In this document: positions 20,427 through 62,455 of the stretch, one piece after another
How positions within the stretch are numbered: position 1 is the first letter of the stretch
Layout of the letters: each line of letters starts with the position of its first letter
Assembly: GCA_944392815.1 (NCBI GenBank)
Contig: CALXXY010000001.1
Coordinates: forward strand, 160,001 to 224,000
DNA length: 64,000 bases
Direction: 5' to 3'
DNA from: an uncultured Alphaproteobacteria bacterium
GTDB lineage: Bacteria > Pseudomonadota > Alphaproteobacteria > Rs-D84
Translations under genes and position numbers: made by a program
Notes under the pieces: model-generated
Told to the model about the DNA's origin: nothing
What the model saw: only the letters and a program-made list of their open reading frames with translations
Databases searched by the model: none

Positions 20427-20595
20427 TGCCTACAATTATTAAAAAACCATTGAATGTGCAAAATTCTCTATCTGAATCCTATTTTATGTAAAATCTTTCT
20501 GGGACCCCACCGGGTCCACGTATATCTATTACTCTGCCAAATAAATTTAGCAATGATCTATGATGGTGTAATTGCCACTAAACATTAGGTTTATT

Positions 20596-21228: not shown

Positions 21229-21235
21229 CCGTTGT

Positions 21236-22399: not shown

Positions 22400-22410
22400 A
22401 ACAATCCCCA

Positions 22411-24211: not shown

Positions 24212-24475
24212 TATTCCTTCCGATAGAAAAACTATACAAGAATTTTACAAACAAAATCAAGGCGATTTACAACTTTCTATAAGCCCTATTTTTACCCAAT
24301 GTTACTATTCGGAACACTTTAAGGTACAATAAATCGCAAAATCTGTGAATGTTATCCAAATAGGGGTGGATAGTCATTTCTTTTATATATCAGACATTTT
24401 GTGTAATAGAGTTTTATCAACTTGACTTTCTGCGCTTTGTAAGCAGTAATTGCACAACCTTAAAAGGATGTGATT

Positions 24476-24913: not shown

Positions 24914-26492
24914 GTGCGCAATTTATACGCGTAAATCAACAGAACACGGACTTGAACAAGAATTTAATTCTCTGCAAAACCAAGAAGAGTCCTGCAAAGC
25001 ATATATTGCATCGCAATCCTTCAACGGCTGGCAATATTATAAAACATACAGCGATGCGGCGATATCTGGTGGGACTATGGAACGCCCGGCACTAAAACAA
25101 ATGTTGGATGATATGGCACACGGTTTAGTAAATACGGTGGTCGTTTACAAAGTTGATCGATTATCGCGTTCAATCTTGGATTTCCACAATATGATGAAAT
25201 ATTTTGAAAGATACGGTGCAAATTTTGTATCCATTACTCAGTCATTTGATACCAGTACATCAATGGGGAAACTGACACTGAATATGTTGCTGTCATTCGC
25301 CCAATTTGAACGCGAGGTGTCATCGGAACGTGTGCGTGATAAAATCCGTGCTAGTAAGGCCAAGGGTCTGTGGATGGGCGGTAATCCGCCACTGGGGTAT
25401 GATGTGATAGATAAAAAGTTGATCCCGAACACGGCTGAGGCCACAAACGTTCGGAAACTTTTTGAAAAGTATCTGGAACTGCAATCTGTAAATGCATTAA
25501 CAGAATATGTCGCGGCGCACAAAATATATGCCAAACAATGGACAACCGCCAAAGGTATTATCAAAGGTGGTCGTCCCATTGCAAAAATGAGTATGCACCG
25601 TATCCTGCGGGATAAGATTTACATCGGTCAAATTGAAAACAAAAAAGAAGGCACTTTTGCCAAAGGCGAACACGAACCAATAATTCCCGAAGAACTGTTT
25701 AATCGTGTTCAGGTTGCGCTGGCTAATAATTCCAACAACAAATCACCCAGCACGCGTGCACCGAATATACTAACTGGCAAACTGTTTAATCATAATGGTG
25801 TTAAATTTATAAATCAACGCACAAGTGGTAAAGGCAAAAAGACCGCGTATTATTATGCAACCAAAGGCTTCTATCTGACCGCGACACGCGTGGATGCAAT
25901 CGCCATAAAAACAATAACGGATTTTCTGAATAGCGATATGTCGAATTTGCCTATAAACTTGGCCACCATATTAAAACGAATTGATATTACAAATATGACA
26001 TATACACAAAAACGAGATTTGATTCAATCGCTGGTTGAAAAGGTTGTATATTCGCAGGAACAATTGATTTATACGCTTACGACCGATGCTACAAAATTGC
26101 AACAATTTGTATCCGAAAATTATGTAAATCAAAATACAGATAAAATGGAATACATAATTGGAGACAATAGCGTCACAATTACCGAAAAAGTATTTCTTCG
26201 TAAATATGTGAATACAGTATACGACCGTGGCAAAAATGGGGTATTAAATGTCACCGACAACAACCATCTGATTCTGAAAGCCTTTGCCACCGCATGGAAA
26301 TATCGTGAATTATACGAACAAGATGGTAATGTAGATAATATTATTCGCTACCTGCACACTTCGCCACGCCAATTCTACCGTTATCTGGGCATCGCATACA
26401 TGACCCCAGACAATGTCAACGAAATCTTGTCTGGGAAATTAAAAATTAATGTTAATGATTTATTTCGGATTGCGAGAGAAAACGATTTTTAA
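24903..26492 (+). CDS. Large serine recombinase (integrase)
   Basis: CAIYTRKS, ERPAL, KVDRLSRS, FAQFERE, Y.G and H.PII recombinase-domain motifs. Confidence 0.93.
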   Translation: MTIKCAIYTRKSTEHGLEQEFNSLQNQEESCKAYIASQSFNGWQYYKTYSDAAISGGTMERPALKQMLDDMAHGLVNTVVVYKVDRLSRSILDFHNMMKYFERYGANFVSITQSFDTSTSMGKLTLNMLLSFAQFEREVSSERVRDKIRASKAKGLWMGGNPPLGYDVIDKKLIPNTAEATNVRKLFEKYLELQSVNALTEYVAAHKIYAKQWTTAKGIIKGGRPIAKMSMHRILRDKIYIGQIENKKEGTFAKGEHEPIIPEELFNRVQVALANNSNNKSPSTRAPNILTGKLFNHNGVKFINQRTSGKGKKTAYYYATKGFYLTATRVDAIAIKTITDFLNSDMSNLPINLATILKRIDITNMTYTQKRDLIQSLVEKVVYSQEQLIYTLTTDATKLQQFVSENYVNQNTDKMEYIIGDNSVTITEKVFLRKYVNTVYDRGKNGVLNVTDNNHLILKAFATAWKYRELYEQDGNVDNIIRYLHTSPRQFYRYLGIAYMTPDNVNEILSGKLKINVNDLFRIARENDF

Positions 26493-26497
26493 TGAAA

Positions 26498-28426
26498 TTA
26501 TTTTTTTAGGATATTGTAATATTGATCCTCAAGATATTGTATGCCATCTTCTTTATCAATATGACTATTTAACATTTGTTTCATGTTAAATAAAGCTTGC
26601 TCGTTTTCATTTAAAATATCAGCCCATGTTTTTATATATAATCTTTTATTTGGTGTGTCTTGTACACCATAATTTATAAAACCTGTTTTCTTATTTTCTA
26701 TTTCTTTTTGAGCTTCCAGTTTAATTTTAGAAGAAACCACAATTATATCCATTTCGTATTTATCAAACTGAGCATTTGACGTAATAGTGTTGTAGTATTT
26801 TTTAATTTGAGTAACTTCATCAAATCCTATATCAACACTAGGTCTTTTCAACTCAACTATTAGTGCTTTCGGAGCATCGCCAGAAAAACCTTTTCTAGCA
26901 AAAAATAAATCGGGTATATACTCTCCTCCAACAATATCACCCTGACAAGCAAAATCTTTTAAACTATCGCGCAATTCTTTTATAATCGTGCTAAAAGCAT
27001 TATCCGAAGCTAAAAAATTAAACCTTTCGCCAAAAATCCACGTTTCATTTTCAATAATTTTATGTAATTGGGAACGTTCTTTTATGTTTTTTAAATCACC
27101 ATATGCTATTTGCCTTAATCCCTCTAAAAATTTTAATCTGCGTTGTATTGTTGAAGCGGTTTTGATTATTGAATTTAAAGATACCTCTTTTAGTAAATCA
27201 GAAAAATCTTGCATTTCTTCAGCGGTTAAATCCATCAGTTTTTCCAATACGTCTTTAAAATTTTCAGGATCTTTTTGTATAACTAATTGAATAGTATTAA
27301 CAATGCCCTTTCTGATATATTGCGGTGTAGAACTTTTAAATACTGATGGACGAGTAGTATTTAGTTTTATTAGAATTTTATCATAAATACGTTTAGTCTG
27401 TTCTTCTGATACGGTTAGTTCACTATCATCATCGTACGGATAAATTCCGTCTCGCTTAAGGATCTGGATAATGTCTTCGGATTTTTGCTTATTATGATTG
27501 AAAACAAAAGCATTTTTCATTTCAATCGCTTGGTTTTTTATATAAGATAATTCTGGGTCTAAATTAGCAACACCTAAACGATTTTCTTTATACGCATTGG
27601 CAACCCTATCTGCTGCTACATACACAGAGTGATTTGACGTTTTCTTGCTATCATCCAATTTATCTTCCAATAGAGTATTCCAACTTGAATCACACCAAAA
27701 CAAACGATTATTTTCTGGAGTAGTGGTTTTCCAAACAATCGTCTTCATTTTTACATCTTCATTTGGATTTGGCAAATTGCTAATATCACTTGTAGCTTCA
27801 ATATGATCAGAAATATCTAGCAGGACACCGTTTAATGTTACAGATATTCGTTTATCTTCAAGAATAGTAACAAAAAAACGTTCTAAGGTTTCTTTTAAGT
27901 CTTGTTGTGATGGAATTTTTATAGTTTTCCCATTTGCATATGCTGTAAAAATAGTCCCTGTAATTGTTTTTATATCAGAAACATCCGCATCGTCTTCTAT
28001 TTCTGGTTTTAAAGGATCATTGATATTTATAGTAACTCTTGTAGAATCTTTGTCTGTTTTGGTTTTCCATTCTACAATATTACCTAAAGCAAAACTTTTA
28101 AATCTACCTTGTCCATTACGTCCATGTACCAATCGATGGAAATCGTTTGTTTGTCCGAGCCTTTTGTTTGACTTTCCGAGAGTTAGAAAGGGGTCAACTT
28201 CTGTGTCCTCGTTTGGTTTATAAAAACCCTTACCATTATCTATAACTGTGATTTTATCGACCACCTTTAATTCATTCATGTAGATATTTATATCGATCTT
28301 GCTTGCAGATGCATCTAACGAATTATAGATTATTTCTTCAAGAGCCTCAACTGGATTTAAATTGCTATAATTAGTGTTAATTAATTTAGGATTGGTTCGT
28401 ACATTAGCAGTTCGTATCTTTGGCAT
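26498..28426 (-). CDS. GHKL (MORC/HATPase_c_3-like) ATPase fused to a PD-(D/E)xK nuclease; putative defence protein
   Basis: EIIYNSLDA, DNGKG, GRNGQGRF; C-terminal WIFG, PDLF, IVELKRP. Confidence 0.75.
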   Translation of the reverse strand: MPKIRTANVRTNPKLINTNYSNLNPVEALEEIIYNSLDASASKIDINIYMNELKVVDKITVIDNGKGFYKPNEDTEVDPFLTLGKSNKRLGQTNDFHRLVHGRNGQGRFKSFALGNIVEWKTKTDKDSTRVTININDPLKPEIEDDADVSDIKTITGTIFTAYANGKTIKIPSQQDLKETLERFFVTILEDKRISVTLNGVLLDISDHIEATSDISNLPNPNEDVKMKTIVWKTTTPENNRLFWCDSSWNTLLEDKLDDSKKTSNHSVYVAADRVANAYKENRLGVANLDPELSYIKNQAIEMKNAFVFNHNKQKSEDIIQILKRDGIYPYDDDSELTVSEEQTKRIYDKILIKLNTTRPSVFKSSTPQYIRKGIVNTIQLVIQKDPENFKDVLEKLMDLTAEEMQDFSDLLKEVSLNSIIKTASTIQRRLKFLEGLRQIAYGDLKNIKERSQLHKIIENETWIFGERFNFLASDNAFSTIIKELRDSLKDFACQGDIVGGEYIPDLFFARKGFSGDAPKALIVELKRPSVDIGFDEVTQIKKYYNTITSNAQFDKYEMDIIVVSSKIKLEAQKEIENKKTGFINYGVQDTPNKRLYIKTWADILNENEQALFNMKQMLNSHIDKEDGIQYLEDQYYNILKK

Positions 28427-28654: not shown

Positions 28655-28744
28655 TGGCGGATGGGGAGGGATTCGAACCCCCGGTGGAGTTGCCCCCACA
28701 ACGGTTTTCAAGACCGTCGCAATCGACCGCTCTGCCACCCATCC
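28655..28744 (-). tRNA. tRNA-Ser (anticodon UGA)
   Basis: GGATGGGTGGCAGAGCGG...CTTGAAA...GGTTCGAATCCCTCCCCATCCGCCA; 90 nt with long variable arm and CCA end. Confidence 0.95.
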
Positions 28745-39783: not shown

Positions 39784-39859
39784 GCCAGTTTAGCTCAGCT
39801 GGTAGAGCATCTGATTTGTAATCAGAGGGTCGTTGGTTCAAGTCCGACAACTGGCACCA
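39784..39859 (+). tRNA. tRNA-Thr (anticodon UGU)
   Basis: GCCAGTTTAGCTCAGCTGGTAGAGC...TTTGTAA...GGTTCAAGTCC...GGCACCA; 76 nt. Confidence 0.96.
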
Positions 39860-39928
39860 GAATATGTCCCTGATATCAGGGACTTTTTCATTTTTATACT
39901 TAAATATTCCCTGCCCTTTATTTATTTT

Positions 39929-43182: not shown

Positions 43183-45399
43183 TTATATTTCTTTATCTCG
43201 CTGTTTTTTATGTTCTTCATAAATGCTTTTCATACGCTCAGTTACCACAAGCTCAGCTTCTTTTATATCAAATTTATCTTTTAAGATACTTCTATAACGC
43301 ATAAAATGTATGATGCTAATTTGGCTAAGTTCATCAGAGACTATCAAATTCCATAATAAAACAATGACTTTCTTTACTTCGCTTGTGGTATACTTTGGGC
43401 TTTTAGTGAAATAATCATCATAATACCTATTTATACAGTAAAATAAATTTTCACAATTTTTTACTACACTTTCTAAATATGCTCTATCCGATAACACATC
43501 TAAGAAAACCTTATCTTTCTCTAAAATAAGATCAAATACGCTAGACAGCTCTAGTTTTGTGTTGGGATAGTCATTATTAAATGTTTTGTATTTTTCCCCC
43601 ATCCTGTTCTTGTACTCTTGCTTTATCCTTTCTTTCATTTGTTTTATAATAGTAGCAAGACTATCGTGTTCTATACTCGGGGTAATATATTCACAACACT
43701 CATCAAAAAGCTCCCCCAATTCTTTCAATGTAAAACCAGACAGACTCTTATCAAGCATCATACTCAAGAAATCTTTCTTAGCAGATATAATTTCTTGATC
43801 TTTAATACCAACTATACGAGGCTTATGCAAAAATAAATTTATTAAATTTGTAGAATAAATCGTCCATTCGTCAGACTTTTGCATAATGTCCTTACCAACT
43901 TCCAAGGCCATAAGCATATTACTCTTATGTCTTTGCATTTCATGATCCACAGTTTGAGTACCTATATTCATTTCGTACATATTGTATATATTTACGATAT
44001 CTCTTAATGCAAATGCGGATTTTTTATTTCTTATGTATTTTTCTACATCTTCTTTGGTCTCACATTTATCAAACTCTTTAATGGTTATTATAATGGCTTT
44101 AGAATTATCAGAATAATCTATAAAAAACTCTTCTCTTTTTCCTTCATCAAACATTTTATGAGTCAGATCTTTTATAAGAAGGTAATTTGAATTTTTCTTA
44201 TTACAGTATCGGCCTACAAGAATATCCAGTTCTTTTTTTTGTTGTTCAACTGCTTCTTCTTTATTTCTACTAATAGCTAAATCTATATTGCTTTTTATAT
44301 CTGTGCTCAATTTTAAAGCATAAAATAAATCACCCGCGACATACCTAAATATTATCGATAATAAAAATGCTTTTTTATCGATTTCAAACGGATAAAATCT
44401 TTGTAACTCAACCTCTCGTTCTAACAAATCCCTTAAAATTGTTTTTATTTGTCTGGGATTATTTGGAAAAGAATCCGCATTCCTAATTAGAAAATCCTCT
44501 GTGAAGATTTTGGCTTTTCTAAAGTCTCCTGTTAAAAGTTTTTTCAAGAAATACCTTTTCGAATCATTTGTCATTGCTGGGATATAAAAATGAAAATCAA
44601 TAAATTTATTTATAAATTCGATATTCCAAAGAGCATTTCCCGCTTCTTTCAAAGAAAGGTCTACCTTATCTCTGTCCAACAAGAAAATAAAATTAAAATT
44701 TTCAATTCCAAATAAATCAGATAATTTTGTAAATAAATTTGGAATATCTTCAAATTTTGGGCTTCTATCTATATCATCCAAAACAATTATAAAATTTTTA
44801 TTCTTTGATAACTTCTTTAGTTTTGTTTTTTTCTTTTCATAAGACAAACGAAATAAATCTTGTATTGTACCAAAATATGAAGGTAGTTTTACTTTATCAA
44901 ATATTCTAGGCAACATTAAAAAGGCAGAAAAAAGGGAAACAGGTAATATAATTTTAATATATGGAATTAACAGAATAAAAGAATCAAATAAAAAATACTT
45001 TGTGCATATTATATCTGACAAACAAACTGCCAACCAAGCACAAAATACATATTTCATAAATCCATAAAATAGCCTTTTACTTTTCTGGCACAAATTATAA
45101 TTAGTTAATATTTCTAATAAAGCATCTACTATTTCATCTGAATTTTTATATGCCCACGTATTAAAATCTATAAAGATATATTCTTTCCTAGCCAATTCTT
45201 TCACCATACCAATGATGGATGTTTTTCCGCTTCCCCATTCACCATAAAGACCCATATTACAGCCCTTTTTTATACCATCGGTATCTTTATAACTAATATT
45301 TTTATTTTTTATCGTGCTAACTATATTTTGTGCTATTGTTGCAAAACCTAATAAATCTTTTTCAACATTAACTGTTGGAACTTCTGCCAAATTATTCAT
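43183..45399 (-). CDS. KAP-family P-loop NTPase
   Basis: GLYGEWGSGKT, FNTW, two TM helices, VLDDIDR, KFID, NPRQIK. Confidence 0.88.
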   Translation of the reverse strand: MNNLAEVPTVNVEKDLLGFATIAQNIVSTIKNKNISYKDTDGIKKGCNMGLYGEWGSGKTSIIGMVKELARKEYIFIDFNTWAYKNSDEIVDALLEILTNYNLCQKSKRLFYGFMKYVFCAWLAVCLSDIICTKYFLFDSFILLIPYIKIILPVSLFSAFLMLPRIFDKVKLPSYFGTIQDLFRLSYEKKKTKLKKLSKNKNFIIVLDDIDRSPKFEDIPNLFTKLSDLFGIENFNFIFLLDRDKVDLSLKEAGNALWNIEFINKFIDFHFYIPAMTNDSKRYFLKKLLTGDFRKAKIFTEDFLIRNADSFPNNPRQIKTILRDLLEREVELQRFYPFEIDKKAFLLSIIFRYVAGDLFYALKLSTDIKSNIDLAISRNKEEAVEQQKKELDILVGRYCNKKNSNYLLIKDLTHKMFDEGKREEFFIDYSDNSKAIIITIKEFDKCETKEDVEKYIRNKKSAFALRDIVNIYNMYEMNIGTQTVDHEMQRHKSNMLMALEVGKDIMQKSDEWTIYSTNLINLFLHKPRIVGIKDQEIISAKKDFLSMMLDKSLSGFTLKELGELFDECCEYITPSIEHDSLATIIKQMKERIKQEYKNRMGEKYKTFNNDYPNTKLELSSVFDLILEKDKVFLDVLSDRAYLESVVKNCENLFYCINRYYDDYFTKSPKYTTSEVKKVIVLLWNLIVSDELSQISIIHFMRYRSILKDKFDIKEAELVVTERMKSIYEEHKKQRDKEI

Positions 45400-45700
45400 A
45401 CATATGCCCTTTCATTATAAAGAATTGTATTATAATAGTATAAAACTAAATTCCTAGCATTAGAATAATGCGCCTCTAAAAGGCTATTAAAATTATCATC
45501 ATAAAAATATCAAAATTTGATGCATATTGACTACTTTCACTTATTTAACATAATTATTACCAAGAGTACTTCATTATAACAACAATAAGGAACTCTTATT
45601 CATATGTTTTTGGACAATTTAAAGATCACCTATCGATTTAAACTTGCACTTAGATCATCATTAAAAGCTCAAGGAGTTTGTTGCCATATTAGCACACCCT

Positions 45701-46129
45701 TCATCCCTTTATATACGAATCAAATTTTTCTATAAAACTGCGTGCATTTAAAAACAACAACCTTACCTGTTCCATATTTATATGATTAATATTTATCGAT
45801 GCTGTATGCGCGCTACTCTGATTCCTTAGATTTTTAATTTGCTGAATTGACGAAATTTCCTCGAATAAAAATACATTCTGTCCATTAGCACCAAGAACCC
45901 CTCTACAGTGATCAAACACATCTTCCGGTTCTTTAGCATTGCATTTTTCACGTATTAAAATCAAATTAGCTTGTACATACTCATCAATTTCTGCATTAAT
46001 TTTTACGATATAATATTCTGCTAATATGGCATTCAAAAGGCCATAATTATTCCCGATTTTGACACTATCAGGAATTTCTTGCAAAATATTATTTATCAAC
46101 TGCAAAAGCTGTTCCGAACTATTAAGCAC
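45701..46129 (-). CDS. HEPN-like protein
   Basis: LRNQSSAH (RxxxxH-like) near the C-terminus; directly downstream of DUF262. Confidence 0.65.
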   Translation of the reverse strand: MLNSSEQLLQLINNILQEIPDSVKIGNNYGLLNAILAEYYIVKINAEIDEYVQANLILIREKCNAKEPEDVFDHCRGVLGANGQNVFLFEEISSIQQIKNLRNQSSAHTASININHINMEQVRLLFLNARSFIEKFDSYIKG

Positions 46130-46139
46130 TAGTAAAACC

Positions 46140-47186
46140 CTATTTCAGTATATTTCTAGCTATTTCTAGTCGGGTATCAACGAATTTTTTTGACGTTGTC
46201 CCATTACCCCTCAGAATAATTTCCATATACTCTGGGTTTTGCTTTAAAAGTTCAAATTTTTCGGGTAAATTTTCCACTTCCCCGTTGTGCATCAATGCCA
46301 CTATTACCGAGTCAAGCAAAGTATAATTTGGAATATGGCTTTTATTTATTGAAAAGGGATGTTCTGGTAATACATTATCAATTTGTTCCACTGCTTTTAA
46401 GAAAAGTTCTTGCACATCTGTCTTTTCGCTATTTTTGTTAGACTCCATATATTCATTTAGATAAGACTTCATTACCCCCGTATATTCCACTTCATAAAAA
46501 GCGAAACAACGAAGCACTAACTCCAAATCCAAGAAACGCTTTCCCAGTCCTTGTACCCCCAATATATTTTGCCAATGCATATTTTTATTTGTCTCTTCTA
46601 AAACCATAAGAAATTTGCCGTATGCTATACTTCTTCGAATTTCCATATTATTCAAAGACACCCCTCCGGTATTTAATCTTTCAAAAATCTTATATAAAAT
46701 AGACCTATCGTTAAAATTTGTTGGACGTATAACAGTCGCTGACAACACAACATTTTGCAATCTTCGTTGTTGCACTTGATCTAATTCACTAAACTTTTTA
46801 TTACAATATGGGCTATTTTCATTTAACTTTTTTAATTTGAATTCATCATTTAAAAAGGCCGCAATAGTACTTATACGCTGCAAACCATCAACAATAGAAA
46901 AACTTGCGCCATCTTTTGTAAACAAAAACACCGGAGGGACAGGCAACCCCATAAAAAAAGATTCTATTAAACGAGATTTACGAACATCATCCCACACGGG
47001 CCGACGTTGAAAATCAGGTACATTAAAAGTATGGTCTTTAAAATATTTAGAGTAATTTTCTAGCGTGTAAAAAGCGGGATATGTATTAATTTCATAATTT
47101 GTATTATCAGGCTCCATTTCGTCTTCTTCGATAATTTCTCTTTGTTTATCAATTTCTTCTAACCGCAATAAAACATCATCTGCCAT
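46140..47186 (-). CDS. DUF262 (ParB/Srx-like) domain protein
   Basis: PDFQRRPVW, LIES...LPVP, VDGLQR, IFERLNTGG..L...EIR. Confidence 0.9.
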   Translation of the reverse strand: MADDVLLRLEEIDKQREIIEEDEMEPDNTNYEINTYPAFYTLENYSKYFKDHTFNVPDFQRRPVWDDVRKSRLIESFFMGLPVPPVFLFTKDGASFSIVDGLQRISTIAAFLNDEFKLKKLNENSPYCNKKFSELDQVQQRRLQNVVLSATVIRPTNFNDRSILYKIFERLNTGGVSLNNMEIRRSIAYGKFLMVLEETNKNMHWQNILGVQGLGKRFLDLELVLRCFAFYEVEYTGVMKSYLNEYMESNKNSEKTDVQELFLKAVEQIDNVLPEHPFSINKSHIPNYTLLDSVIVALMHNGEVENLPEKFELLKQNPEYMEIILRGNGTTSKKFVDTRLEIARNILK

Positions 47187-47466
47187 GATTTTAACACCCC
47201 TATAAATAGTTAATTAGTGTATTTAGTATATAAAAATATGTGTTTTTAAGCAAGAACTGTTATCAATAACATAAAAAATAATATACCCCCGATAACACTA
47301 TACGTTCGAAACATTTTCTTTACAAGAAAGCATTCCAATATCCACAGCCTTTTTCATGGAGAAACAAATCATACTATTTGCAATAAATTGTACACACATC
47401 AAAAATTTATTGACTTTACAGCATTTTATTTTACCATGCTTGTTATCAAAATAAAGGTTTATTAAC

Positions 47467-48663
47467 ATGCGGTTATCATCTATTCCGTACTCTGCGAGTA
47501 TAAACTTACTTCAGTGCAATAAATCTGTTCCTTGTAATCGTTTACTGGCCGACACAAACCTTATTCAACAAAATAGCCCTGGACATATTATATATACACC
47601 AATAGTTCAAAAAATAAAAAAGAACATTGAAAACATCACATTGGAAAACGCTGAGAAATACGGTTTCAATGAAATGCTGTTTCCGGTTTTGATGGAAACC
47701 AAGCTTTTAGACGCATCAGGCAAAACTCAAGAATATGCCGATGAATTTTATGCACCGTCCGATTCAAAAGGAAATTTGATTATCTCGCCAACCACGGAAG
47801 AAAGACTGATAGATTTTGTGGCACGCAGTGGCGTTTTATCCTATAAATCATTGCCTATGCGATTTTCACAGGTGTCTAATGTATACAGAAATTTGAAAAG
47901 AACTGAAGGATTGTATAAATCACGAGAAATTTCATGTGTTGTTTTGACTGCTATTGACAAAGATAATGCAACTTATTTACAAACAATGAAAGATTTCAGA
48001 TTGTTATGTGAAGAATCATTCAAACAAATGGGCATCCCAAATTTTTATATCCAAGATAAAATGTCTGGCGCAGTTGAATTCTTTTATACAACAGAGTTAG
48101 CTGATAGACCGCTAAGCAAAAGTATTATCAACAACTTTGGAAACAAGAACAAGTTTGAAACCCAAGAATTGTTTGGTAGTTTATCCATGGGCTATCCTTT
48201 TAAACAGAGTGAAAATTTCAATTTATTTTACACGGACAACAGAGGCACACGCAAGAAACCTGTAGTCAGCACATATGGTATCGGAACCCAACGTTGTATC
48301 CACACATTATTTGAACAAGCGAAAAACGGGCGTACAGATGCGTTTTCTCCAGCGGTACGTCCTTTTGACGTTGATATTATTGTATTATCCAAAGACACCC
48401 AACATGCTCAAATTAAGATATTGGCCGAACAATTGCAAAAAAATAAGATCCATTATTGTATCGACGATCGTAATAATAGCATGAAAGATAAAATGCGATT
48501 TTCGGAATTCTTTTCCATACCATGTCGTATTATTATCGGTGACAAAGAAATTGCACAACAACAATATTCTGTAAAACCGTTGACGGTAAATGAGCCAATG
48601 TATGTTGATATAGCAAAAGCAATAGAACTTGTAAAACAATTAACAATAGAGAGAGTGAGATGA
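47467..48663 (+). CDS. Highly diverged ProRS paralog (class II aaRS core + anticodon-binding domain)
   Basis: SPTTEE, SYKSLP, altered motif 2 YRNLKRTEGLYKSREI, motif 3 TYGIGTQR, DDR and IP.RIIIG.KE anticodon domain. Confidence 0.75.
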   Translation: MRLSSIPYSASINLLQCNKSVPCNRLLADTNLIQQNSPGHIIYTPIVQKIKKNIENITLENAEKYGFNEMLFPVLMETKLLDASGKTQEYADEFYAPSDSKGNLIISPTTEERLIDFVARSGVLSYKSLPMRFSQVSNVYRNLKRTEGLYKSREISCVVLTAIDKDNATYLQTMKDFRLLCEESFKQMGIPNFYIQDKMSGAVEFFYTTELADRPLSKSIINNFGNKNKFETQELFGSLSMGYPFKQSENFNLFYTDNRGTRKKPVVSTYGIGTQRCIHTLFEQAKNGRTDAFSPAVRPFDVDIIVLSKDTQHAQIKILAEQLQKNKIHYCIDDRNNSMKDKMRFSEFFSIPCRIIIGDKEIAQQQYSVKPLTVNEPMYVDIAKAIELVKQLTIERVR

Positions 48664-49664
48664 CCCGACCTGTATCTTCCTGGAACAACCCAAAGCAACA
48701 CTTAGACAAACTGTTAACAACACCTTGGTATAGAGTCATTAACAAAATATTTTCTGAGATATTGGTACTTACTCACGATTTTTATAAAACTGAAAATATT
48801 GCACCCACAATTTTTCCAATTACTACTGGTTCTGTCAGTAGTCCTTTTGGGCTTGGGAGTGATTCTTTGCCAGTAAAAATCAAAATTAAGAATAATGACA
48901 TATATTTGGCAGATTCTATGCAGTTTTCATTGGAAATTGCATCTCGCTTGAACACCAATGGAGCATATTATATTATGCCGTCTTTTCGTGGCGAAGATAT
49001 GGATGCCCGTCATCTTAACGAATTCGTTCATTCAGAGGTCGAAATAAAGGGCTCTCTGGACGATGTTATGGCGTTGGCCGAACGTTACATAAAATTTCTT
49101 ATCAAGGGATTAAAGTTATCTTGCGCAACAGAAATTACAGAAGTATGTGGCACAACGGAACACTTAGATACAGCTTTGGCACGTCCATTTCATAAAATTA
49201 GATTTGAAACCGCTATGCAAGAATTAGCCAGCGTCGAGGATGCATTTAAAAGGTTGGATGATAAATTATACGCTATTACATCTGCTGGAGAACATGCGTT
49301 GATTGACAAATATGGTGATTTTACATGGATAACAAACATGCCTCACAAAGCAGTGCCTTTCTATCAAGCAGAAGAACCTGACACAGAATATTCTATGACA
49401 GGCGATTTACTGGCTGGAATTGGCGAAATATTAGGCTGTGGACAACGTGTATTCTCAGCTCAAGACGCAATTAATTCTTTAGATAATCACAATATTGACA
49501 AGACTGGTTATCAATGGTATATCCACATGCGTGAAATAAATCCTCTACAAACATCAGGCTTTGGAATGGGGATAGAGCGGTTTATTTTATGGTTGTTAAA
49601 ACACAACGACATCCGTGATTGCACTTTACTGATTCGCAACCACAAGGATGTCGTATTTCCTTAA
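48660..49664 (+). CDS. AsnRS/AspRS-like catalytic-domain-only protein (asparagine synthetase A-like)
   Basis: YLADSMQF, SFRGE..D.RHLNEF.HSE.E, GEILG.GQR, YQWY, SGFGMGIERF; no OB anticodon domain. Confidence 0.82.
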   Translation: MTRPVSSWNNPKQHLDKLLTTPWYRVINKIFSEILVLTHDFYKTENIAPTIFPITTGSVSSPFGLGSDSLPVKIKIKNNDIYLADSMQFSLEIASRLNTNGAYYIMPSFRGEDMDARHLNEFVHSEVEIKGSLDDVMALAERYIKFLIKGLKLSCATEITEVCGTTEHLDTALARPFHKIRFETAMQELASVEDAFKRLDDKLYAITSAGEHALIDKYGDFTWITNMPHKAVPFYQAEEPDTEYSMTGDLLAGIGEILGCGQRVFSAQDAINSLDNHNIDKTGYQWYIHMREINPLQTSGFGMGIERFILWLLKHNDIRDCTLLIRNHKDVVFP

Positions 49665-50629
49665 TGTTTAAGGATAGTTAAAGAATTATCAGAAATTTTT
49701 ACCTGACCACCAATTGGTAAGGTTACCATTGGATAAGTGTGTCCAAAATCGATGTTGGCCAGCACAGGCATAGCCTTTAATTCTGGATGAATATTAAATA
49801 TAGAGACAATATCTTCTTTAGATATTTCGTTTTTCTGTTCCATGCGTCCAAACAATATTCCACGAACATTTTTAAACCAGGGTTGATGTATTGTGGATTG
49901 CAAAATTCTATCCAATATGTACTTGTTACCACCCTCTATTTCCACCGCCAAAATCACATCTTCATCAATGGGCATATACTGTGTGCCATACAACAATTGG
50001 ACAGTTGTGGCTTCGCCACCAATCAGGGTACCGGTAGCATTTCCATGGTTAATTACCCAAAAGCCGTCGTTTTCATGAAAAGTTCTATCTTCTTGGTTTA
50101 TAAACCATTCAGGGTCGTCACTCCATTTTGTGCTGGCCACTAATGTCTTTTCAGAATTATCAAACAGTATGTGTTTCAAATAGTCCATAGAATAATCTGC
50201 GCCGTATTTCATTCCCAATGTAGAAAAATGTGGTCCATAATATGAAACAATACCTGTTTTTGCCAGTATTGCGTTTTGTAATGCAGCAATGTCAGAATAC
50301 CCGATTAACATCTTAGGATTTTGCCTTATCAAATCATAATCTATTAAATCCAGCAACTGATTAGAATTAAAACCACCAATAACTGTGAATATAGCTTTTA
50401 CATTACTGTCTTTATACGCATCGTGAATATCGTTCAGACGGGCCACCACAGGTGAAGAAACAAAGGCGTCTATAATGTCCAGATTTTTCCCAAAAGATAC
50501 TTTCAACCCCATATCTTCCAATCTTTGTTGGGCCAAGGCTCTTACATCTTCGCCAATAATTTTATACGACATAGCCGGCGCAATAATACGTACTTCATCA
50601 CCAGCTTTTAGTTTTTGTGGAAAAATCAT
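49661..50629 (-). CDS. S66 peptidase, MccF/LD-carboxypeptidase family
   Basis: IGGFNSNQLL..IDY, GYSD (Ser), E, DFGHT (His); Trp-containing loop WSDDPEW. Confidence 0.88.
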   Translation of the reverse strand: MIFPQKLKAGDEVRIIAPAMSYKIIGEDVRALAQQRLEDMGLKVSFGKNLDIIDAFVSSPVVARLNDIHDAYKDSNVKAIFTVIGGFNSNQLLDLIDYDLIRQNPKMLIGYSDIAALQNAILAKTGIVSYYGPHFSTLGMKYGADYSMDYLKHILFDNSEKTLVASTKWSDDPEWFINQEDRTFHENDGFWVINHGNATGTLIGGEATTVQLLYGTQYMPIDEDVILAVEIEGGNKYILDRILQSTIHQPWFKNVRGILFGRMEQKNEISKEDIVSIFNIHPELKAMPVLANIDFGHTYPMVTLPIGGQVKISDNSLTILKH

Positions 50630-50640
50630 CTCTCTCTCCT

Positions 50641-51465
50641 TTATTTATTTGTGCCAAATACAAATATATTATTACCACGAGCAGCCACATCATTGTTTTT
50701 GATATGCTCTTTTTCCATATCAAAAATCCGTTGAAAAATTTCTTTATTTTCTAGTATATCGGCTATTTCGCCAGTTTGTCCACGCAATTGGGTTTCTTGA
50801 TACCCAGGATAAATCAGATTTGGAAAACCAGAACAAAAATCAACTGTTATATTATGCTTTTTCATCATATCCTTGATGCTGTTCGGCGAGAACATATTAA
50901 TATATGGCATTTGATCTGTAAAACGACCACGTCCAGACAGACATTTATTTGCCTCATCAATATTTCCCAGTTTTGTATTAAAGAATGCTGCGTGATACAT
51001 ATTTGGTGCCAATGTACAAATTATACCGCCTTTTTTTGTTACGGATTTTAACTGTTCAAAAAAATTATCAACATTTTCACCTACGAAACCGATAACATTA
51101 TGAAAATTAAATACAAAATCAAACTGTTCGTCTACTTGTGACAAATCGTTCAAATCTTGTAACATAAAATCCCATCTTCCCTGATACGGAATTGACTTAT
51201 GTTTAGCTACATCCAACATTTCTTTGGAAAAGTCTATCGTAACACCAGAACACTCTGGAAATTCCTCTAATAATTTATGAGACCAACGACCTGTACCACC
51301 ACCCGCATCACAAAACCTGAAATTCTTAGGTAATTTAGGAATAATATATGTTTTTATGGAATCCCACAACAGGGCATCTGATAACCGCCAATAACTTTGA
51401 TTTTCTACCAAGTCATATTCTGATGCTTTCTCTGCAAAATATTTTAATACAGAATCTTTGTACAT
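50641..51465 (-). CDS. Class I SAM-dependent methyltransferase
   Basis: DAGGGTGRW, DFSKEML, FDFV..HNV. Confidence 0.88.
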   Translation of the reverse strand: MYKDSVLKYFAEKASEYDLVENQSYWRLSDALLWDSIKTYIIPKLPKNFRFCDAGGGTGRWSHKLLEEFPECSGVTIDFSKEMLDVAKHKSIPYQGRWDFMLQDLNDLSQVDEQFDFVFNFHNVIGFVGENVDNFFEQLKSVTKKGGIICTLAPNMYHAAFFNTKLGNIDEANKCLSGRGRFTDQMPYINMFSPNSIKDMMKKHNITVDFCSGFPNLIYPGYQETQLRGQTGEIADILENKEIFQRIFDMEKEHIKNNDVAARGNNIFVFGTNK

Positions 51466-51478
51466 AGAACCCTCCTCT

Positions 51479-52756
51479 TTATCTAAGTTTTGTCTGTTGT
51501 GTTAATCTTATTAAATCGTTAACTGACATCTGTGTAACGTTACCATTTTTGCGATCTTTTACCTCGACATTGCCTGTATTAAAGAATGTTTTACCGATAA
51601 TTATTCTATTTGGAATACCAATAAGGTCACTTTCTGCAAATTTAATACCTCCACGTACATCTTTGCGGTCGTCATATAAGACATCAAATTGTGCATTTAA
51701 TAACTGTTGATATATATTGTCTACAACAGCTATTTCGTCATCTTTTACCGCCATTGAAATTAGATGCCATTCAAACGGCGCTATTTTAGCAGGCCATACC
51801 AATCCCCTGTCGTCACTTAAGCACTCTGCAACAGTACCCATAACACGGCTTGGACCAATACCATAACACCCCATGATAATAGGTTTGCTTTGGCCCTTGT
51901 TATCAATAAAATTCGCATCAAACGGTGCTGTGAAACGTGTACCAAGCTTAAATATGTTTCCAACTTCTACAGCGCGTTTTTGTTCAAATGTTTTTTCTAT
52001 ACCATCCGTATAGTTTGGAATAATATCGCGCAAAGCACATTTATCTCCGATAATTTCACGATTGATAGCAATTTTTGTCCCTGGAATTATATAAATGGTA
52101 TCTTCACCGGCATCGGTCAATGTTTGGAATTCATGAGAATATTTTGCAAACGCACCTCCACTGGCATATGTAAAATAAGTTTTATCACCAATACCACAAT
52201 CCGTGTAGAACTCCATATACATTTGAGCAACTTTTTCATAATACATATCTAAATCTGCCTGACTTTCATGAAAAGAATACAAATCATTCATACGAAATTC
52301 TTTACACCGGAACAAGCCAGACTTTGAACGAGGTTCATCTCTGAACTTGTTTTGAATCTGAAATACCGCCTTTGGCAAGTCTTTATAAGAAGAGATAAAA
52401 TTAGTCACAAAAGGCGTAACAACCTCTTCGTTTGTTGGACTTAAGGCATATTCTTTATCTGCATGGCCATGAATCTTATATAAAACATCTATCTTATCCC
52501 AACGACCGGTTTGCTTCCAAACATCTGACGGCTGCAAAACAGGCATCATAACTTCTTGGCCGTTTACAGTTTGCATATACTGACGGATTAAATTCTCAAT
52601 TTTGTTCAATGTTCTAAAGCCCAATGGCATATAAGAATAAGCCCCCCCCATTAATTTATGAATAAAGCCTGCGCGTGTCAACAACTGGGCGTTTTTAGAC
52701 ATCTCTTGTACATTGGAGGCTTTTTGTGTTTTATAAAACAAGTTACTTTGGCGCAT
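51479..52756 (-). CDS. Second proline--tRNA ligase (bacterial type, no editing domain)
   Basis: LLTRAGF, W..TGRW, PTNEE, SYKDLP, FRDEPR..SGL.R..EF.M.DLYSFH, EVGNIFKLG, MGCYGIG.SR, WP..IAPF. Confidence 0.88.
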   Translation of the reverse strand: MRQSNLFYKTQKASNVQEMSKNAQLLTRAGFIHKLMGGAYSYMPLGFRTLNKIENLIRQYMQTVNGQEVMMPVLQPSDVWKQTGRWDKIDVLYKIHGHADKEYALSPTNEEVVTPFVTNFISSYKDLPKAVFQIQNKFRDEPRSKSGLFRCKEFRMNDLYSFHESQADLDMYYEKVAQMYMEFYTDCGIGDKTYFTYASGGAFAKYSHEFQTLTDAGEDTIYIIPGTKIAINREIIGDKCALRDIIPNYTDGIEKTFEQKRAVEVGNIFKLGTRFTAPFDANFIDNKGQSKPIIMGCYGIGPSRVMGTVAECLSDDRGLVWPAKIAPFEWHLISMAVKDDEIAVVDNIYQQLLNAQFDVLYDDRKDVRGGIKFAESDLIGIPNRIIIGKTFFNTGNVEVKDRKNGNVTQMSVNDLIRLTQQTKLR

Positions 52757-52883
52757 AACAAATACCTTTTGTGTTGCCTACATATACACTCTTCTGTGCT
52801 AAGAATACCGAAATCATAGGAAAAATCAAGAAGTTCTTGAATATAAAGCTATCAAAAAACAGCGTTTATAGTCCATATTAAAA

Positions 52884-54056
52884 TCATACACTGTTTATCA
52901 TCCTATCCACGGCTTTTTGCATAGAGGCACGGACTGGATCGGCAGACAAACGGGCATAAATAGCAGTTGCAGCGGTTGATTTATGCCCCAAAGACCTGCC
53001 AATTACATTCATGCTTGCTCCTGTAATCGCTTGATAACTTCCCATAGTTCTACGTAAATCATGTAGTCGTAGATTATCTATATTCGCTCGTCTTAGAAGA
53101 CTTTTCCATGCACGTTTTGGCTCTTCCAGATGGCCACTGGCACTTTGTTCACTTGGTAACACCCAAGAACTATTACTATTTTGTTTAATTTTTAATAATA
53201 ATTCTCTTAACTGTTCGATAATCGGGACCTGCATAGGTTCACCATTTTTAGTATCTGATAAGTATATAAAGCCATTTACTAAGTCTATCTGAGACCAGCG
53301 CAGGCTCAATACATTACTTCTACGCTGTCCAGAATATAGAGAAATCAGCACATAATTCTTAAACACATCATTGGGTTCGTTATTTAATGCGTCAAACAAT
53401 CGTTTTAATTCGTCATCTCGTAAAAATCTATCCCGACTTATTTCCCTGAACATTTTTATACCATCAGTTGGATTTTCAAAACGTTTCGGGAATCCGCATT
53501 CATAAGCTTTGTTATACATATGTCTGATAAGCGCCAGCATACGATTGGCGGTATACGAACTTACCGTTTGTCGCAAGAAGTTATGATGTCGCGCTACTTC
53601 ATCACGGCTTATTGTTCGCATCTGACGATTATGAAATACAGACAAATGATTTCTAAAAGTAGCATTATCGTTAATTTGCGTTTTCTGCTTTTTATGCGTT
53701 AAGGAATGCACAGGTAAATATACTTTTTCATAATATTCTTTCAATGTCATATCATGCAATTCATCAAAGCGTTCTTGCGCTGGATCTTCGCCGCATATTG
53801 CCCTTTCACGCATTGTATGCGCTTTACGACGCGCAGTTTCCAATTCAACATGTCCGAACTTACCTATCTTTATACGTTTAGGCATCCCCTGATATTTCAT
53901 ATAGGCATAAAATGTTTTAGAGCCACCATAAGAAACAATTAAACACAGACCATCTTTTGAGCCTGAATCATAATACACAACCTGGTTTTTTTCCTTGGTT
54001 GGAATAGGCAAAGAAGCTATTGCTTTTTTAGTAAAATTTATGGTCTGTGTTTTCAT
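52884..54056 (-). CDS. Tyrosine recombinase/integrase (P4-like, with arm-binding domain)
   Basis: N-terminal GL.L.V...GSK arm domain; SGQR, TKNG, HDLRRT, LGH, YA catalytic residues. Confidence 0.95.
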   Translation of the reverse strand: MKTQTINFTKKAIASLPIPTKEKNQVVYYDSGSKDGLCLIVSYGGSKTFYAYMKYQGMPKRIKIGKFGHVELETARRKAHTMRERAICGEDPAQERFDELHDMTLKEYYEKVYLPVHSLTHKKQKTQINDNATFRNHLSVFHNRQMRTISRDEVARHHNFLRQTVSSYTANRMLALIRHMYNKAYECGFPKRFENPTDGIKMFREISRDRFLRDDELKRLFDALNNEPNDVFKNYVLISLYSGQRRSNVLSLRWSQIDLVNGFIYLSDTKNGEPMQVPIIEQLRELLLKIKQNSNSSWVLPSEQSASGHLEEPKRAWKSLLRRANIDNLRLHDLRRTMGSYQAITGASMNVIGRSLGHKSTAATAIYARLSADPVRASMQKAVDRMINSV

Positions 54057-54206: not shown

Positions 54207-54258
54207 TCTGATTTGTAATCAGAGGGTCGTTGGTTCAAGTCCGACAACTGGCACCAGA
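54207..54258 (+). repeat. att site: duplicated 3' half of tRNA-Thr
   Basis: Identical to 39810-39861. Confidence 0.95.
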
Positions 54259-61018: not shown

Positions 61019-62455
61019 TTAATATGATTTTGCAACATATACGTATGTTGGGTCATTATCGTCCAGGCACCGGCGCGATATTTTGTATTTTTCCATCAAT
61101 TCATCAAATTTTTCATTTGTTGTTAAATCGTATTTAATACGGAAAAATCCAATTTTACCGGCCGCCAATGCTGATTCCAGTGCGTCAATATCCGCAACAT
61201 CGTGAATCATAGTTTCATTGCGACGAACGACCGCGTCATACATATCGTGCTGGATTTGTTCCAACATATTTTTCACGTCGGCCACAAATGCGTCCGTGGA
61301 CATAGTTTGTTTTGATGATTTACCCAAATCACGACGTGTGACCGTCACATTGTTTTCGTCCATTTCACGCGCGCCAATTTCCACACGCAGTGGCACGCCG
61401 CGCTTAATCCATTTCCACATTTTATCCGGCGCGCGCATATCAGATGTATCAACCAACACACGCACGTCGATGTTTTCCAATTGTTCGCCCAATTTCTGTG
61501 CGAACGCGTTTAATGCGTCGGCCGTGTCGTCACGCGTGATTGGGATAATCACAACCTGGTACGGGGCGATGGCGGGCGGCAACACCAGCCCATCGTCGTC
61601 GGAATGCGTCATGAACAAACTGCCCATCATACGCGTGGATACGCCCCACGATGTTGTCCAGGCATGTTTTAACGCACCATCTGTATCCAAAAATTGAATA
61701 CCGAATGATTTTGAAAAATGCTGGCCCAGGTCATGTGATGTTCCGGCCTGTAAAGCTTTGCCGTCCTGCATAATGTGTTCCAGTGTATATGTGTGATCGG
61801 CACCGGCAAATCGTTCCTCGGGCGTTTTTTCACCCATGATTGACGGTATGGCCAAAATTTCGCGCATATAGTCACCATACACGCGGTGCATTTTACGCGC
61901 GTCTGCATTTGCCTCTTCATGTGTGGCGAATGCGTTGTGACCTTCCTGCCAATAAAATTCTGATGTGCGCAGGAACAGGCGTGGCCGCATTTCCCAACGC
62001 ATAACATTTACCCACTGATTCAATTTCAGCGGCAAATCGCGATACGATTGTACCCAACGCGACATTGCGTCACCGATAATTGTTTCAGACGTCGGACGAA
62101 TAACATACGGTTCCGTTAATTTTGCGTCTGGGTCGGGCTGTAATGTGCCGTCAATCATTTTCAGACGATAATGCGTGACAACGGCGGCCTCTTTGGCAAA
62201 GCCGGCGACATGTTCGGCCTCGCGATTAAAAAAATTGATTGGTATCAGTAATGGGAACTGAGCATTTTGCGCGCCACATTTTTTTATGCGTTTGTCCAAT
62301 GCATCACGCATCAATTCCCAAATGGCCCAACCATACGGCTTTATCGTCATGCACCCACGCACAGGCGCATTTTCCGCCAAATCGGCCGCAGTTATCAGGT
62401 TTTGATACCATTCGCTGAAATTTTCCGAACGGGTCGGTGTAATTGCTGTTTTCAT
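61019..62455 (-). CDS. proS: Proline--tRNA ligase, archaeal/eukaryal type (housekeeping)
   Basis: FSEWY, VRGC, EHVAGF, RPTSET, QW.NV.RWE, FLRTSEF.WQEGH, QAGTSH, SWG.STR, C-terminal AKSY. Confidence 0.95.
   Translation of the reverse strand: MKTAITPTRSENFSEWYQNLITAADLAENAPVRGCMTIKPYGWAIWELMRDALDKRIKKCGAQNAQFPLLIPINFFNREAEHVAGFAKEAAVVTHYRLKMIDGTLQPDPDAKLTEPYVIRPTSETIIGDAMSRWVQSYRDLPLKLNQWVNVMRWEMRPRLFLRTSEFYWQEGHNAFATHEEANADARKMHRVYGDYMREILAIPSIMGEKTPEERFAGADHTYTLEHIMQDGKALQAGTSHDLGQHFSKSFGIQFLDTDGALKHAWTTSWGVSTRMMGSLFMTHSDDDGLVLPPAIAPYQVVIIPITRDDTADALNAFAQKLGEQLENIDVRVLVDTSDMRAPDKMWKWIKRGVPLRVEIGAREMDENNVTVTRRDLGKSSKQTMSTDAFVADVKNMLEQIQHDMYDAVVRRNETMIHDVADIDALESALAAGKIGFFRIKYDLTTNEKFDELMEKYKISRRCLDDNDPTYVYVAKSY

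Follow-up and report, generated by a model that had tools for sequence, protein, structure and literature searches.

A remodelled prolyl-tRNA synthetase paralog in a minimal mobile agrocin-84-type cassette of a gut alphaproteobacterium

The stretch of DNA analysed here, referred to below as the window, comprises 64,000 nucleotides of contig CALXXY010000001.1 from an uncultured alphaproteobacterium and carries, on an integrated island, a cassette of five genes, one of which (47467..48663, + strand) encodes a 398-aa paralog of prolyl-tRNA synthetase (ProRS). This paralog is a full-length ProRS-fold protein that combines a class IIa catalytic fold, in which the ATP/adenine subsite is remodelled, with an anticodon-binding domain. 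Taken as a whole, the cassette is read here as a minimal mobile cassette of the agrocin 84 type that is aimed at ProRS. Because its neighbours include an ortholog of AgnA and an S66 peptidase of the MccF-like kind, the paralog can be placed with considerable confidence in a pathway that makes an inhibitor of aminoacyl-tRNA synthetases (aaRSs), in which it would act as a biosynthetic enzyme. By analogy with known transferases, there is about an even chance that it is a tRNA-dependent prolyl transferase, and that the cassette makes a prolyl-adenylate mimic while protecting its producer.

Fold, conservation and selection of the paralog

Pfam recognises both tRNA-synt_2b (46.3 bits, cut-off 29.3) and HGTP_anticodon (46 bits, cut-off 21) in the paralog. 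The nearest NCBIfam models are ProRS equivalogs, and the protein stays below the cut-off of every one of them (NF006625, 145 vs. 558 bits; NF008979, 123.5 vs. 550 bits; TIGR00409, 117.9 vs. 306.7 bits). ProRS-2, the intact extra ProRS of the same cassette (51479..52756, − strand; 425 aa, with canonical motifs and without the editing insertion), passes TIGR00409 (407 vs. 307 bits). Identity between the two amounts to 23% over 395 columns (BLASTP, E 7e-21), and both BLASTP and MAFFT align motif 2 of ProRS-2, FRDEPRSKSGLFRCKEFRMNDLYSF, with YRNLKRTE-GLYKSREISCVVLTAI of the paralog, which thus has YRNL and SREI at the places of FRDE and KEF. Further along, EVGNIFKLG of ProRS-2 is aligned with SLSMGYPFK, while PTxEE (SPTTEE in ProRS-2, SPTNEE in the paralog) and motif 3 (YGIGTQR and YGIGPSR, respectively) are retained. 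Each of the substitutions listed in an earlier note on this open reading frame (ORF), which was made from the letters alone, is therefore reproduced together with the strings quoted there, and the alignments and the Pfam match agree with its statement that PTxEE, motif 3 and the anticodon domain are kept. The paralog also still has motif 1 and both class II arginines. Among the checks suggested in that note were a structural model and an analysis of selection among homologs. The AlphaFold2 model, built with 30 family sequences, has a ProRS fold with a mean predicted local distance difference test (pLDDT) score of 92.5 and a predicted template modelling (pTM) score of 0.92; Foldseek matches it best to 2i4l, the ProRS of Rhodopseudomonas palustris, which has no insertion (E 4.5e-29, TMq 0.81).

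Selection was estimated as the ratio of nonsynonymous to synonymous substitution rates (dN/dS) by the Nei-Gojobori method for the window copy and nine orthologous loci, of whose 45 pairs 25 were usable, the others being saturated or too close. The paralog has a median dN/dS of 0.082 (range 0.051-0.121), and the remaining four cassette genes lie at 0.042-0.067. Neither stop codons nor frameshifts occur in the 10 orthologous copies of the paralog. Given these intact frames and a dN/dS of 0.05-0.12, neutral decay of the paralog is ruled out, as the earlier note had supposed from the full length of the ORF. Along the protein, dN/dS is lowest in the motif 2 stretch (0.045) and amounts to 0.063 in the catalytic domain and 0.167 in the anticodon domain; the same two domains of ProRS-2 give 0.028 and 0.124. 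With 0.167 against 0.124, the constraint on the anticodon domain of the paralog comes close to that in a working synthetase. Judged from its sequence, then, the paralog is a real, selected and re-purposed ProRS.

A search of 5.8 billion proteins with the paralog returned 36 at E <= 0.001, and 29 of these are close (E <= 3e-103, 46-100% identity), 27 of them being 382-399 aa long; two short close homologs come from contigs of 981 and 1602 bases. HMMER found 31 proteins at E <= 1e-30 among 1.84 billion representatives, and below them, among true ProRSs, several dozen further single-stretch matches of about 370-420 aa. Clustered at 50% identity, the family amounts to about 60 clusters.

In ProRS structures, proline is held by TxE and the motif 2 arginine, and adenine by the acid after that arginine, a phenylalanine and the motif 3 arginine. 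The glutamate of the EVGxIF strand is a Mg2+/ribose ligand of class IIa enzymes, and the arginines of motifs 2 and 3 bind the ATP phosphates in class II enzymes. The fate of these positions was counted in an alignment of 30 family members that are 22-70% identical to the paralog of the window. Pro73 of motif 1, E111, E112 and Arg141 of motif 2 are present in all 30, T109 in 29, and Arg276 of motif 3 in 27, the remainder having lysine. The anticodon-domain DDR is similarly constant (30/30, 30/30 and 29/30). An acid two positions past Arg141, the loss of which had been noted for the paralog, is absent from every member, and I, V or L stands there in 25. The glutamate of EVGxIF has become serine in 26 of the 30, within a family signature S-[LIV]-[AS]-M-[GY]-[YF] whose methionine (M241) is invariant. 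The stacking position is more variable (Phe in 19, Ile in eight, Leu in two and Met in one), so the loss of the stacking phenylalanine reported in the earlier note stands for the clade of the window and not for the family. On the structural roles given above, the column counts suggest that the prolyl subsite has been kept and the ATP-Mg subsite rebuilt.

A working tRNA synthetase of changed specificity, which would attach proline or a proline analogue to tRNA(Pro) or to some other tRNA, much as ProRSx does with tRNA(ProA), could well have the two-domain architecture, motif 1, TxE and both arginines that the paralog keeps. Such an enzyme would hardly be expected to score below all ProRS equivalog cut-offs or to have lost its adenine and Mg-ATP residues, and the island contains no extra tRNA gene and no Rfam RNA beyond the tRNA-Thr at its attachment site. 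Moreover, the AgnA and MccF homologs alongside point to inhibitor chemistry, and this explanation seems very improbable.

The five-gene cassette and AgnA-type loci

The second gene of the cassette (48660..49664, + strand) starts within the paralog gene, the start overlapping the paralog stop by 4 nt both here and in close loci. It encodes a 334-aa protein that consists of the catalytic core of asparaginyl-tRNA synthetase (AsnRS) without an anticodon domain (Pfam tRNA-synt_2, 128 bits) and is the ortholog of AgnA: the agnA product of pAgK84, named "Agrocin84-synthetase", matches it with 44% identity (336 aa, E 2e-103). Across 20 homologs, its class II residues in motifs 2 and 3 do not vary. It belongs to a large family (855 proteins at E <= 0.001), which is annotated as asparagine synthetase A. 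The "AsnRS-like" neighbour of the earlier note does have an AsnRS core; its identity as an AgnA ortholog, like that of the MccF-like peptidase next to it, is context which that note had missed.

The three other genes lie on the opposite strand and converge on the AgnA-ortholog gene. The first of them (49661..50629, − strand) encodes a 322-aa MccF-like S66 serine peptidase, presumed to be a self-immunity hydrolase for aminoacyl-nucleotides, which scores 309 bits with the MccF-like protein of B. anthracis (4e5s) and 109 bits with E. coli MccF (3tla), as against 52-59 bits with LdcA-type chains; it is also 29% identical to AgnC5, a "MccF-like protein" (E 3e-41). MccF itself acts on processed microcin C by cutting its aminoacyl-nucleotide bond (PMC8323819, in the part available). 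Next comes a class I S-adenosylmethionine-dependent methyltransferase of 274 aa (50641..51465, − strand; Pfam Methyltransf_25/11/31), all of whose NCBIfam matches are below cut-off and which, among the methyltransferases of the other clusters, matches only that of B. pseudomycoides, and weakly (28%, 127 aa, E 2.5e-5). ProRS-2 completes the set.

The same five genes occur in the same order in seven of nine close loci from alphaproteobacterial metagenome-assembled genomes (MAGs) and metagenomes, the other two ending at a contig edge, and the flanking genes vary from locus to locus. On a 316 kb metagenome contig (L020, 7194-8197), two ORFs of 245 and 89 aa take the place of a single AgnA-like gene while the other four genes are intact, which may reflect a sequencing error or a recent inactivation of this copy. 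The island holds neither a T-box nor a riboswitch nor an extra tRNA (E up to 1), and a weak snoRNA match (E 0.97) is taken as chance. A promoter and terminator scan of the region was uninformative, its counts being equal to the shuffled expectation. A phage-defence function was also considered for the cassette and rejected: four of the five proteins match no PADLOC model, and the methyltransferase gives only a generic domain match to mad2.

The agrocin 84 pathway, to which the AgnA ortholog leads, was itself unknown as of 2021, according to the part of PMC8323819 that was available. That text proposes AgnA as the phosphoramide-forming enzyme, describes AgnC1 as remotely similar to ProRS and as a candidate for joining the pentanamide to the nucleotide, identifies AgnB2 as a resistant leucyl-tRNA synthetase (LeuRS), and mentions an extra MetRS in actinobacterial agn-like clusters.

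More distant relatives of the paralog are likewise found with AgnA-like genes. On a metagenome contig (L023), the paralog is 28%, the AgnA-like protein 41% and the S66 peptidase 31% identical to the counterpart in the window, and the genes run in one direction: AgnA-like, U32 protein, paralog, methyltransferase, S66 peptidase, second methyltransferase, uncharacterised protein, Acetyltransf_3 GNAT and a partial ProRS, the reading frame of which breaks off after the first ~55 codons. In this end region (9659-10233), the ProRS fragment is followed by a different ORF that resembles the start of a transposase, and this ProRS may have been cut by an insertion. A plasmid of Streptomyces sp. NBC_01707 (L024, cluster 6173-14315) carries an AgnA-like gene, a methyltransferase, FAD and molybdopterin proteins, a paralog (26%, E 8e-42) and an LD-carboxypeptidase, and no extra ProRS was found in the 25 kb examined; a molybdenum hydroxylase could make an 8-oxopurine, which makes the cluster a speculative candidate for a phosmidosine-type pathway. 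On a Xenorhabdus megaplasmid, an AgnA-like gene (46%), a methyltransferase, an S66 peptidase, a nucleoside phosphorylase, a LeuRS, a paralog (24%, E 2e-23) and a pump of the major facilitator superfamily (MFS) are found together. Besides the AgnA-like protein and a methyltransferase, plasmids of Exiguobacterium and Peribacillus (L027 and L030) encode a full alanyl-tRNA synthetase (AlaRS) of 595 aa (~470 bits) and a truncated protein of 375 or 386 aa, named "alanine--tRNA ligase-related protein", which scores 54-75 bits on tRNA-synt_2c; MFS pump and ATP-grasp genes are present as well, and these clusters look like alanyl-nucleotide versions of the same scheme.

Two further plasmid loci show other arrangements of the AgnA-like gene. 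In Pantoea agglomerans plasmids (L028, 8737-11248), a fusion protein has the C-terminal part of an Acetyltransf_3 GNAT in front of its AgnA-like domain and is followed by an MFS transporter gene, and this could be a two-gene producer-and-immunity unit. In Bradyrhizobium symbiosis plasmids (L038, 8865-12650), the neighbourhood of nodU contains an S66 peptidase 42% identical to that of the window, an AgnA-like gene, a HAD hydrolase and a methyltransferase, and no aaRS-like gene. Altogether, 12 AgnA-type loci were compared (the window, L023 and 10 plasmid loci, identical copies of pAgK84 being counted as one). A degenerate aaRS-like gene is present in seven of the 12, and six of these seven also have a full aaRS or a remnant of one; for the other five, neither the plasmid annotation nor tblastn with nine aaRS queries revealed an aaRS-like gene or an aaRS in ~20 kb. 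Across the Pro-, Ala- and Leu-linked clusters the AgnA-like proteins stay at 41-46% identity, which fits an enzyme that acts on a common nucleotide part.

These relatives also bear on whether the paralog could be a non-catalytic adaptor similar to HisZ or PolG2, which would bring tRNA(Pro) or proline sensing to the AgnA ortholog or form a mixed dimer with ProRS-2. The 4-nt overlap between the paralog and AgnA-ortholog genes, the missing anticodon domain of the AgnA ortholog and the loss of the canonical adenine-binding residues in the clade of the window would all suit such a partner. However, an active site of the HisZ/PolG2 type should be degenerate and free of constraint, and that of the paralog is neither: no part of the protein is more constrained than the remodelled pocket, which contains family-invariant residues. 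In addition, the paralog and AgnA-like genes are separated by one gene in L023, by three in Streptomyces and by six in Xenorhabdus. Since relatives occur with LeuRS instead of ProRS, a heterodimer with ProRS-2 cannot be the general role of the family, and an adaptor is altogether quite unlikely. A complex prediction for the paralog and the AgnA ortholog gave a score of 0.00, with no controls run and with ProRS-2 among the alignment rows of chain 1, and is evidence neither way. Three roles had been put forward in the earlier note. Constraint within the protein is strongest on the two class II arginines and on the remodelled pocket, which makes an aaRS with a new substrate and a silent HisZ/PolG2-like partner less likely, and the tRNA-binding aminoacyl transferase is favoured.

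Proposed pathway and mobile setting

The reading of the paralog as a tRNA-dependent transferase has a precedent. In the biosynthesis of ascamycin, AcmF, a truncated AlaRS-like protein without most of the ATP-binding residues, moves alanine from Ala-tRNA(Ala) onto the NH2 group of a nucleoside sulfamate, and AcmD, the cluster's own AlaRS homolog, charges the tRNA; SbzA of the SB-203208 pathway performs the same chemistry from Ile-tRNA(Ile) (PMC12945691, in the part available). The transferase reading is favoured because the paralog combines a constrained anticodon domain and kept prolyl residues with an intact ProRS beside it, in line with the AcmF/AcmD precedent.

By this analogy, the paralog would be the amino-acid-specifying enzyme of the cassette, and the product might be an N-prolyl nucleoside phosphoramidate, possibly methylated as phosmidosine is, which would mimic prolyl-adenylate without being hydrolysable. 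ProRS-2 would charge tRNA(Pro) even in the presence of the inhibitor and could thus both feed the reaction and resist its product, and the AgnA ortholog would supply a nucleoside 5'-phosphoramidate. The paralog might then hold Pro-tRNA(Pro) by means of its anticodon-binding domain and the kept prolyl subsite (TxE and the motif 2 arginine) and transfer the prolyl group to the amino group of the phosphoramidate, which would amount to the second step of aminoacylation run in reverse on an AMP analogue, following the logic of AcmF and SbzA. The methyltransferase may neutralise the phosphoramidate, as in phosmidosine, and the MccF-like peptidase, which would clear the product that accumulates in the cell, would provide self-immunity together with ProRS-2. 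The distribution of domains among the relatives fits a tRNA(Pro)-specific role for the anticodon domain, with two cases set against two: the ProRS-linked members (window and L023) have both TxE and the anticodon domain, whereas the Xenorhabdus paralog gives no anticodon-domain Pfam match and AgnC1 lacks TxE and has no Pfam match.

Several points weigh against the reading of the paralog as a transferase in an agrocin-84-type cassette. Both class II arginines are retained, as is the stacking phenylalanine in 19 of the 30 members; AcmF, by comparison, is described as having lost most of its ATP-binding residues, so that an ATP-using reaction is possible for the paralog. AgnA-type chemistry can evidently run without an aaRS-like gene, given that five loci have none, and the locus sample is small, drawn from the top of the hit list and dependent in part on incomplete plasmid annotation. 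Where a cluster is linked to LeuRS, a group resembling leucine would need to be accommodated on a scaffold of ProRS origin. Between the paralog and AgnC1 there is no BLASTP match, and the profile of the paralog family aligns with one of six AgnC1 homologs at an hhalign E of 0.005 and a probability of 7% over 248 collinear columns, pairing FRN..RP.G..SR.F with F.GFR.V.G..LFRDRF, SLAMGY with ILAMFF, and the start of the anticodon domain. The methyltransferase matches AgnB1 only weakly (E 0.003 over 113 aa), too little for it to be called an AgnB1 ortholog. Neither an exporter nor a gene for an uptake moiety is among the five, and our literature search, from which subscription journals were mostly outside coverage, returned no enzymology of the paralog family or of AgnC1, nor any work after 2021 on the enzymes of the agrocin 84 pathway.

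If the retained arginines do serve ATP, the paralog could be an ATP-dependent ligase that binds prolinamide together with ATP or an analogue, the amide nitrogen attacking the alpha-phosphate to give the N-acyl phosphoramidate. The prolinamide would then come from the AgnA ortholog by amidation of the kind catalysed by asparagine synthetase A, the reaction would be a variant of the first step of aminoacylation, and the anticodon domain would be structural. The ATP-phosphate-binding arginines of motif 2 (in all members) and motif 3 (otherwise lysine) and the frequent phenylalanine would be accounted for, as would the annotation of the AgnA family, and the joining of pentanamide to nucleotide proposed for AgnC1 in the available part of PMC8323819 is a similar step. 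However, the glutamate that binds Mg2+/ribose is serine in most members and the acid after the motif 2 arginine is gone in all. Moreover, a ligase gives no reason why the anticodon domain should be under ProRS-like constraint or why six of seven loci should contain a full cognate aaRS or its remnant, and the similarity of AgnA-like proteins across Pro, Ala and Leu clusters fits a common nucleotide better than differing amino acids. We consider a ligase unlikely, if worth bearing in mind.

It might also be argued that the cassette makes nothing and only confers resistance to a ProRS inhibitor from other gut bacteria, ProRS-2 and the MccF-like peptidase being immunity-type genes and an exporter being absent from the five. 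Nonetheless, the pAgK84 counterpart of the AgnA ortholog carries the name "Agrocin84-synthetase" and is the proposed key biosynthetic enzyme (PMC8323819, in the part available), and resistance would not need two dedicated aaRS-like enzymes under strong purifying selection; a cassette of this kind is therefore scarcely to be expected.

Should the transferase reading be correct, the swapping of a pair of degenerate and intact aaRSs (Pro, Ala or Leu) would reprogramme which synthetase the warhead hits, and a degenerate aaRS beside an intact aaRS and an AgnA homolog would become a genome-mining rule that predicts the target. The principle of AcmF and SbzA would reach a third aaRS lineage and extend to phosphoramidates. 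It is conceivable, although we would put it at somewhat less than even, that the paralog represents the first class IIa (ProRS-derived) aminoacyl-tRNA-dependent transferase that forms an N-acyl phosphoramidate, within modular AgnA-type clusters of which the five genes are the minimal kit. Such a natural kit would be spread by an integrase among gut alphaproteobacteria with genomes of 0.9 Mb, so that animal-gut bacteria with very small genomes would carry mobile antibiotic and immunity kits aimed at translation, and its product, perhaps methylated, might be an uncharged inhibitor that needs no Trojan-horse carrier. Since only two candidate bond-forming enzymes are present, the cassette is a tractable system for the formation of phosphoramidate warheads.

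The mobility of the cassette is apparent from its surroundings. A tyrosine integrase (52884..54056, − strand; Pfam Phage_integrase, 86.9 bits, and Arm-DNA-bind_3) lies beyond ProRS-2, and a 52-nt exact direct repeat forms both attL (39810..39861, + strand), which covers the 3' part of a tRNA-Thr(UGU) gene (39784-39859), and attR (54207..54258, + strand). The island between the repeats measures ~14.4 kb, has a GC content of 0.28-0.37 compared with 0.42-0.49 outside, and has this tRNA-Thr as its only tRNA. It also includes likely phage-defence genes at 43183-47186 (− strand): a DUF262/GmrSD_N protein (PADLOC NsnA 211 bits, PD-T4-2_A 168 bits), a partner ORF of 142 aa and a 738-aa KAP-family P-loop NTPase with weak PifA/QatA matches. 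Elsewhere in the window, a second long stretch of low GC (10001-28000; 0.32-0.39 vs. 0.42-0.51 nearby) ends near a tRNA-Ser (28655-28744) and may be an island as well.

The host is a gut alphaproteobacterium with an assembly of 927,230 bases (96.8% complete). Its second ProRS, an archaeal-type enzyme of 478 aa (61019-62455, − strand), is encoded 8 kb beyond the island, is ~24% identical to the ProRS-2-type proteins of related loci and is presumed to be the housekeeping enzyme and the target; the carrier genomes of loci L001-L005 each have other ProRS-like matches, too. The cassette is a rare accessory element: the paralog occurs in only four of 151 other genomes of the genus (one of the four on a MAG labelled Candidatus Enterousia sp.) and is missing from all of the 400 further genomes sampled across the class. 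Near-identical DNA to window positions 47200-52900 is present in public runs of three studies in addition to the possible source; several of these runs are labelled chicken gut metagenome, and none is recorded as RNA.

Comparison with known systems

The reuse of a class IIa fold with an anticodon-like domain outside normal aminoacylation links the paralog to HisZ, PolG2 and ProRSx. Unlike HisZ and PolG2, which are non-catalytic partners, it has a pocket that is conserved and remodelled and not degenerate. ProRSx is a working ProRS with its own tRNA, tRNA(ProA), and is the only entry under ProRS in the part of a 2022 review of aaRS duplications that was available (PMC9437257), whereas the island of the window has no dedicated tRNA and the motifs of the paralog are remodelled.

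In terms of immunity, the cassette resembles the microcin C system, given that its S66 peptidase scores with the MccF group and not with LdcA. MccF and MccE2 detoxify aminoacyl-nucleotides, as stated in the available part of PMC8323819. A second likeness concerns L023. The Acetyltransf_3 GNAT encoded there is of the family to which MccE2 belongs. In contrast to microcin C, the cassette has neither an MccA peptide nor an MccB ThiF-like adenylyltransferase, and its P-N bond must come from different, aaRS-derived enzymes.

With regard to the product, the nearest analogue is phosmidosine of Streptomyces, an O-methylated N-prolyl phosphoramidate of 8-oxoadenosine and hence a compound of the predicted kind (proline, a phosphoramidate nucleotide and a methyl group). 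Phosmidosine resembles proline-AMP (PMC11229370) and is listed among the phosphoramidate nucleotide antibiotics (PMC6429109). The cassette of the window has no oxidase for the 8-oxo group, whereas the Streptomyces plasmid cluster has FAD and molybdopterin proteins. No phosmidosine gene cluster was found in the literature search, and the likeness is one of chemical analogy.

The enzymatic logic appears closest to that of AcmF/AcmD and SbzA, as far as the available part of PMC12945691 describes them: a protein that descends from an aaRS, with its activation site damaged but the part for recognising tRNA retained, stands beside an intact cognate aaRS, in pathways that lead to an aminoacyl-adenylate mimic, as is predicted for the cassette. 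The paralog shares the kept tRNA-recognition domain and the intact cognate aaRS in the cluster. As to ATP residues, the acid, the EVG glutamate and, in its clade, the stacking phenylalanine are lost, and both class II arginines are kept; AcmF, which could be compared by description only, has lost most of its ATP-binding residues. The truncated AlaRS-like gene of L027 and L030 next to an AlaRS gene repeats the AcmF/AcmD arrangement itself. AcmF and SbzA differ from the paralog in being derived from AlaRS and IleRS, respectively, and in using sulfamate or sulfonamide acceptors instead of the phosphoramidate proposed here, and the available portions of PMC12945691 and PMC9437257 contain no example of a ProRS-derived (class IIa) transferase.

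Finally, the agn cluster of pAgK84 is the system with which the cassette shares its gene content. The cassette is much smaller (five genes vs. 17, without the exporter, the sugar/opine uptake moiety and the tailoring enzymes), its extra aaRS is a ProRS instead of a LeuRS, and its methyltransferase is not of the AgnB1 type. In agn-type clusters, agnC1 is preceded by an agnC0-like ORF of ~420 bp (PMC8323819, in the part available), for which there is no room upstream of the paralog of the window, where a spacer of 280 bp contains no agnC0-like ORF and, at most, an ORF of 56 aa on the opposite strand. Unlike AgnC1, the paralog has TxE and a Pfam-detectable anticodon domain. Nonetheless, the Xenorhabdus protein links the two (E 2e-23 to the paralog, E 2e-5 to AgnC1), and AgnC1 is regarded as a probable far relative and positional equivalent of the paralog, short of proven homology. 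Both clusters contain the same five kinds of genes, namely those for an AsnRS-core synthetase, an MccF-like S66 peptidase, a class I methyltransferase, an additional aaRS that presumably confers immunity and a protein of ~400 aa descended from ProRS, and both are carried on a mobile element of an alphaproteobacterium.

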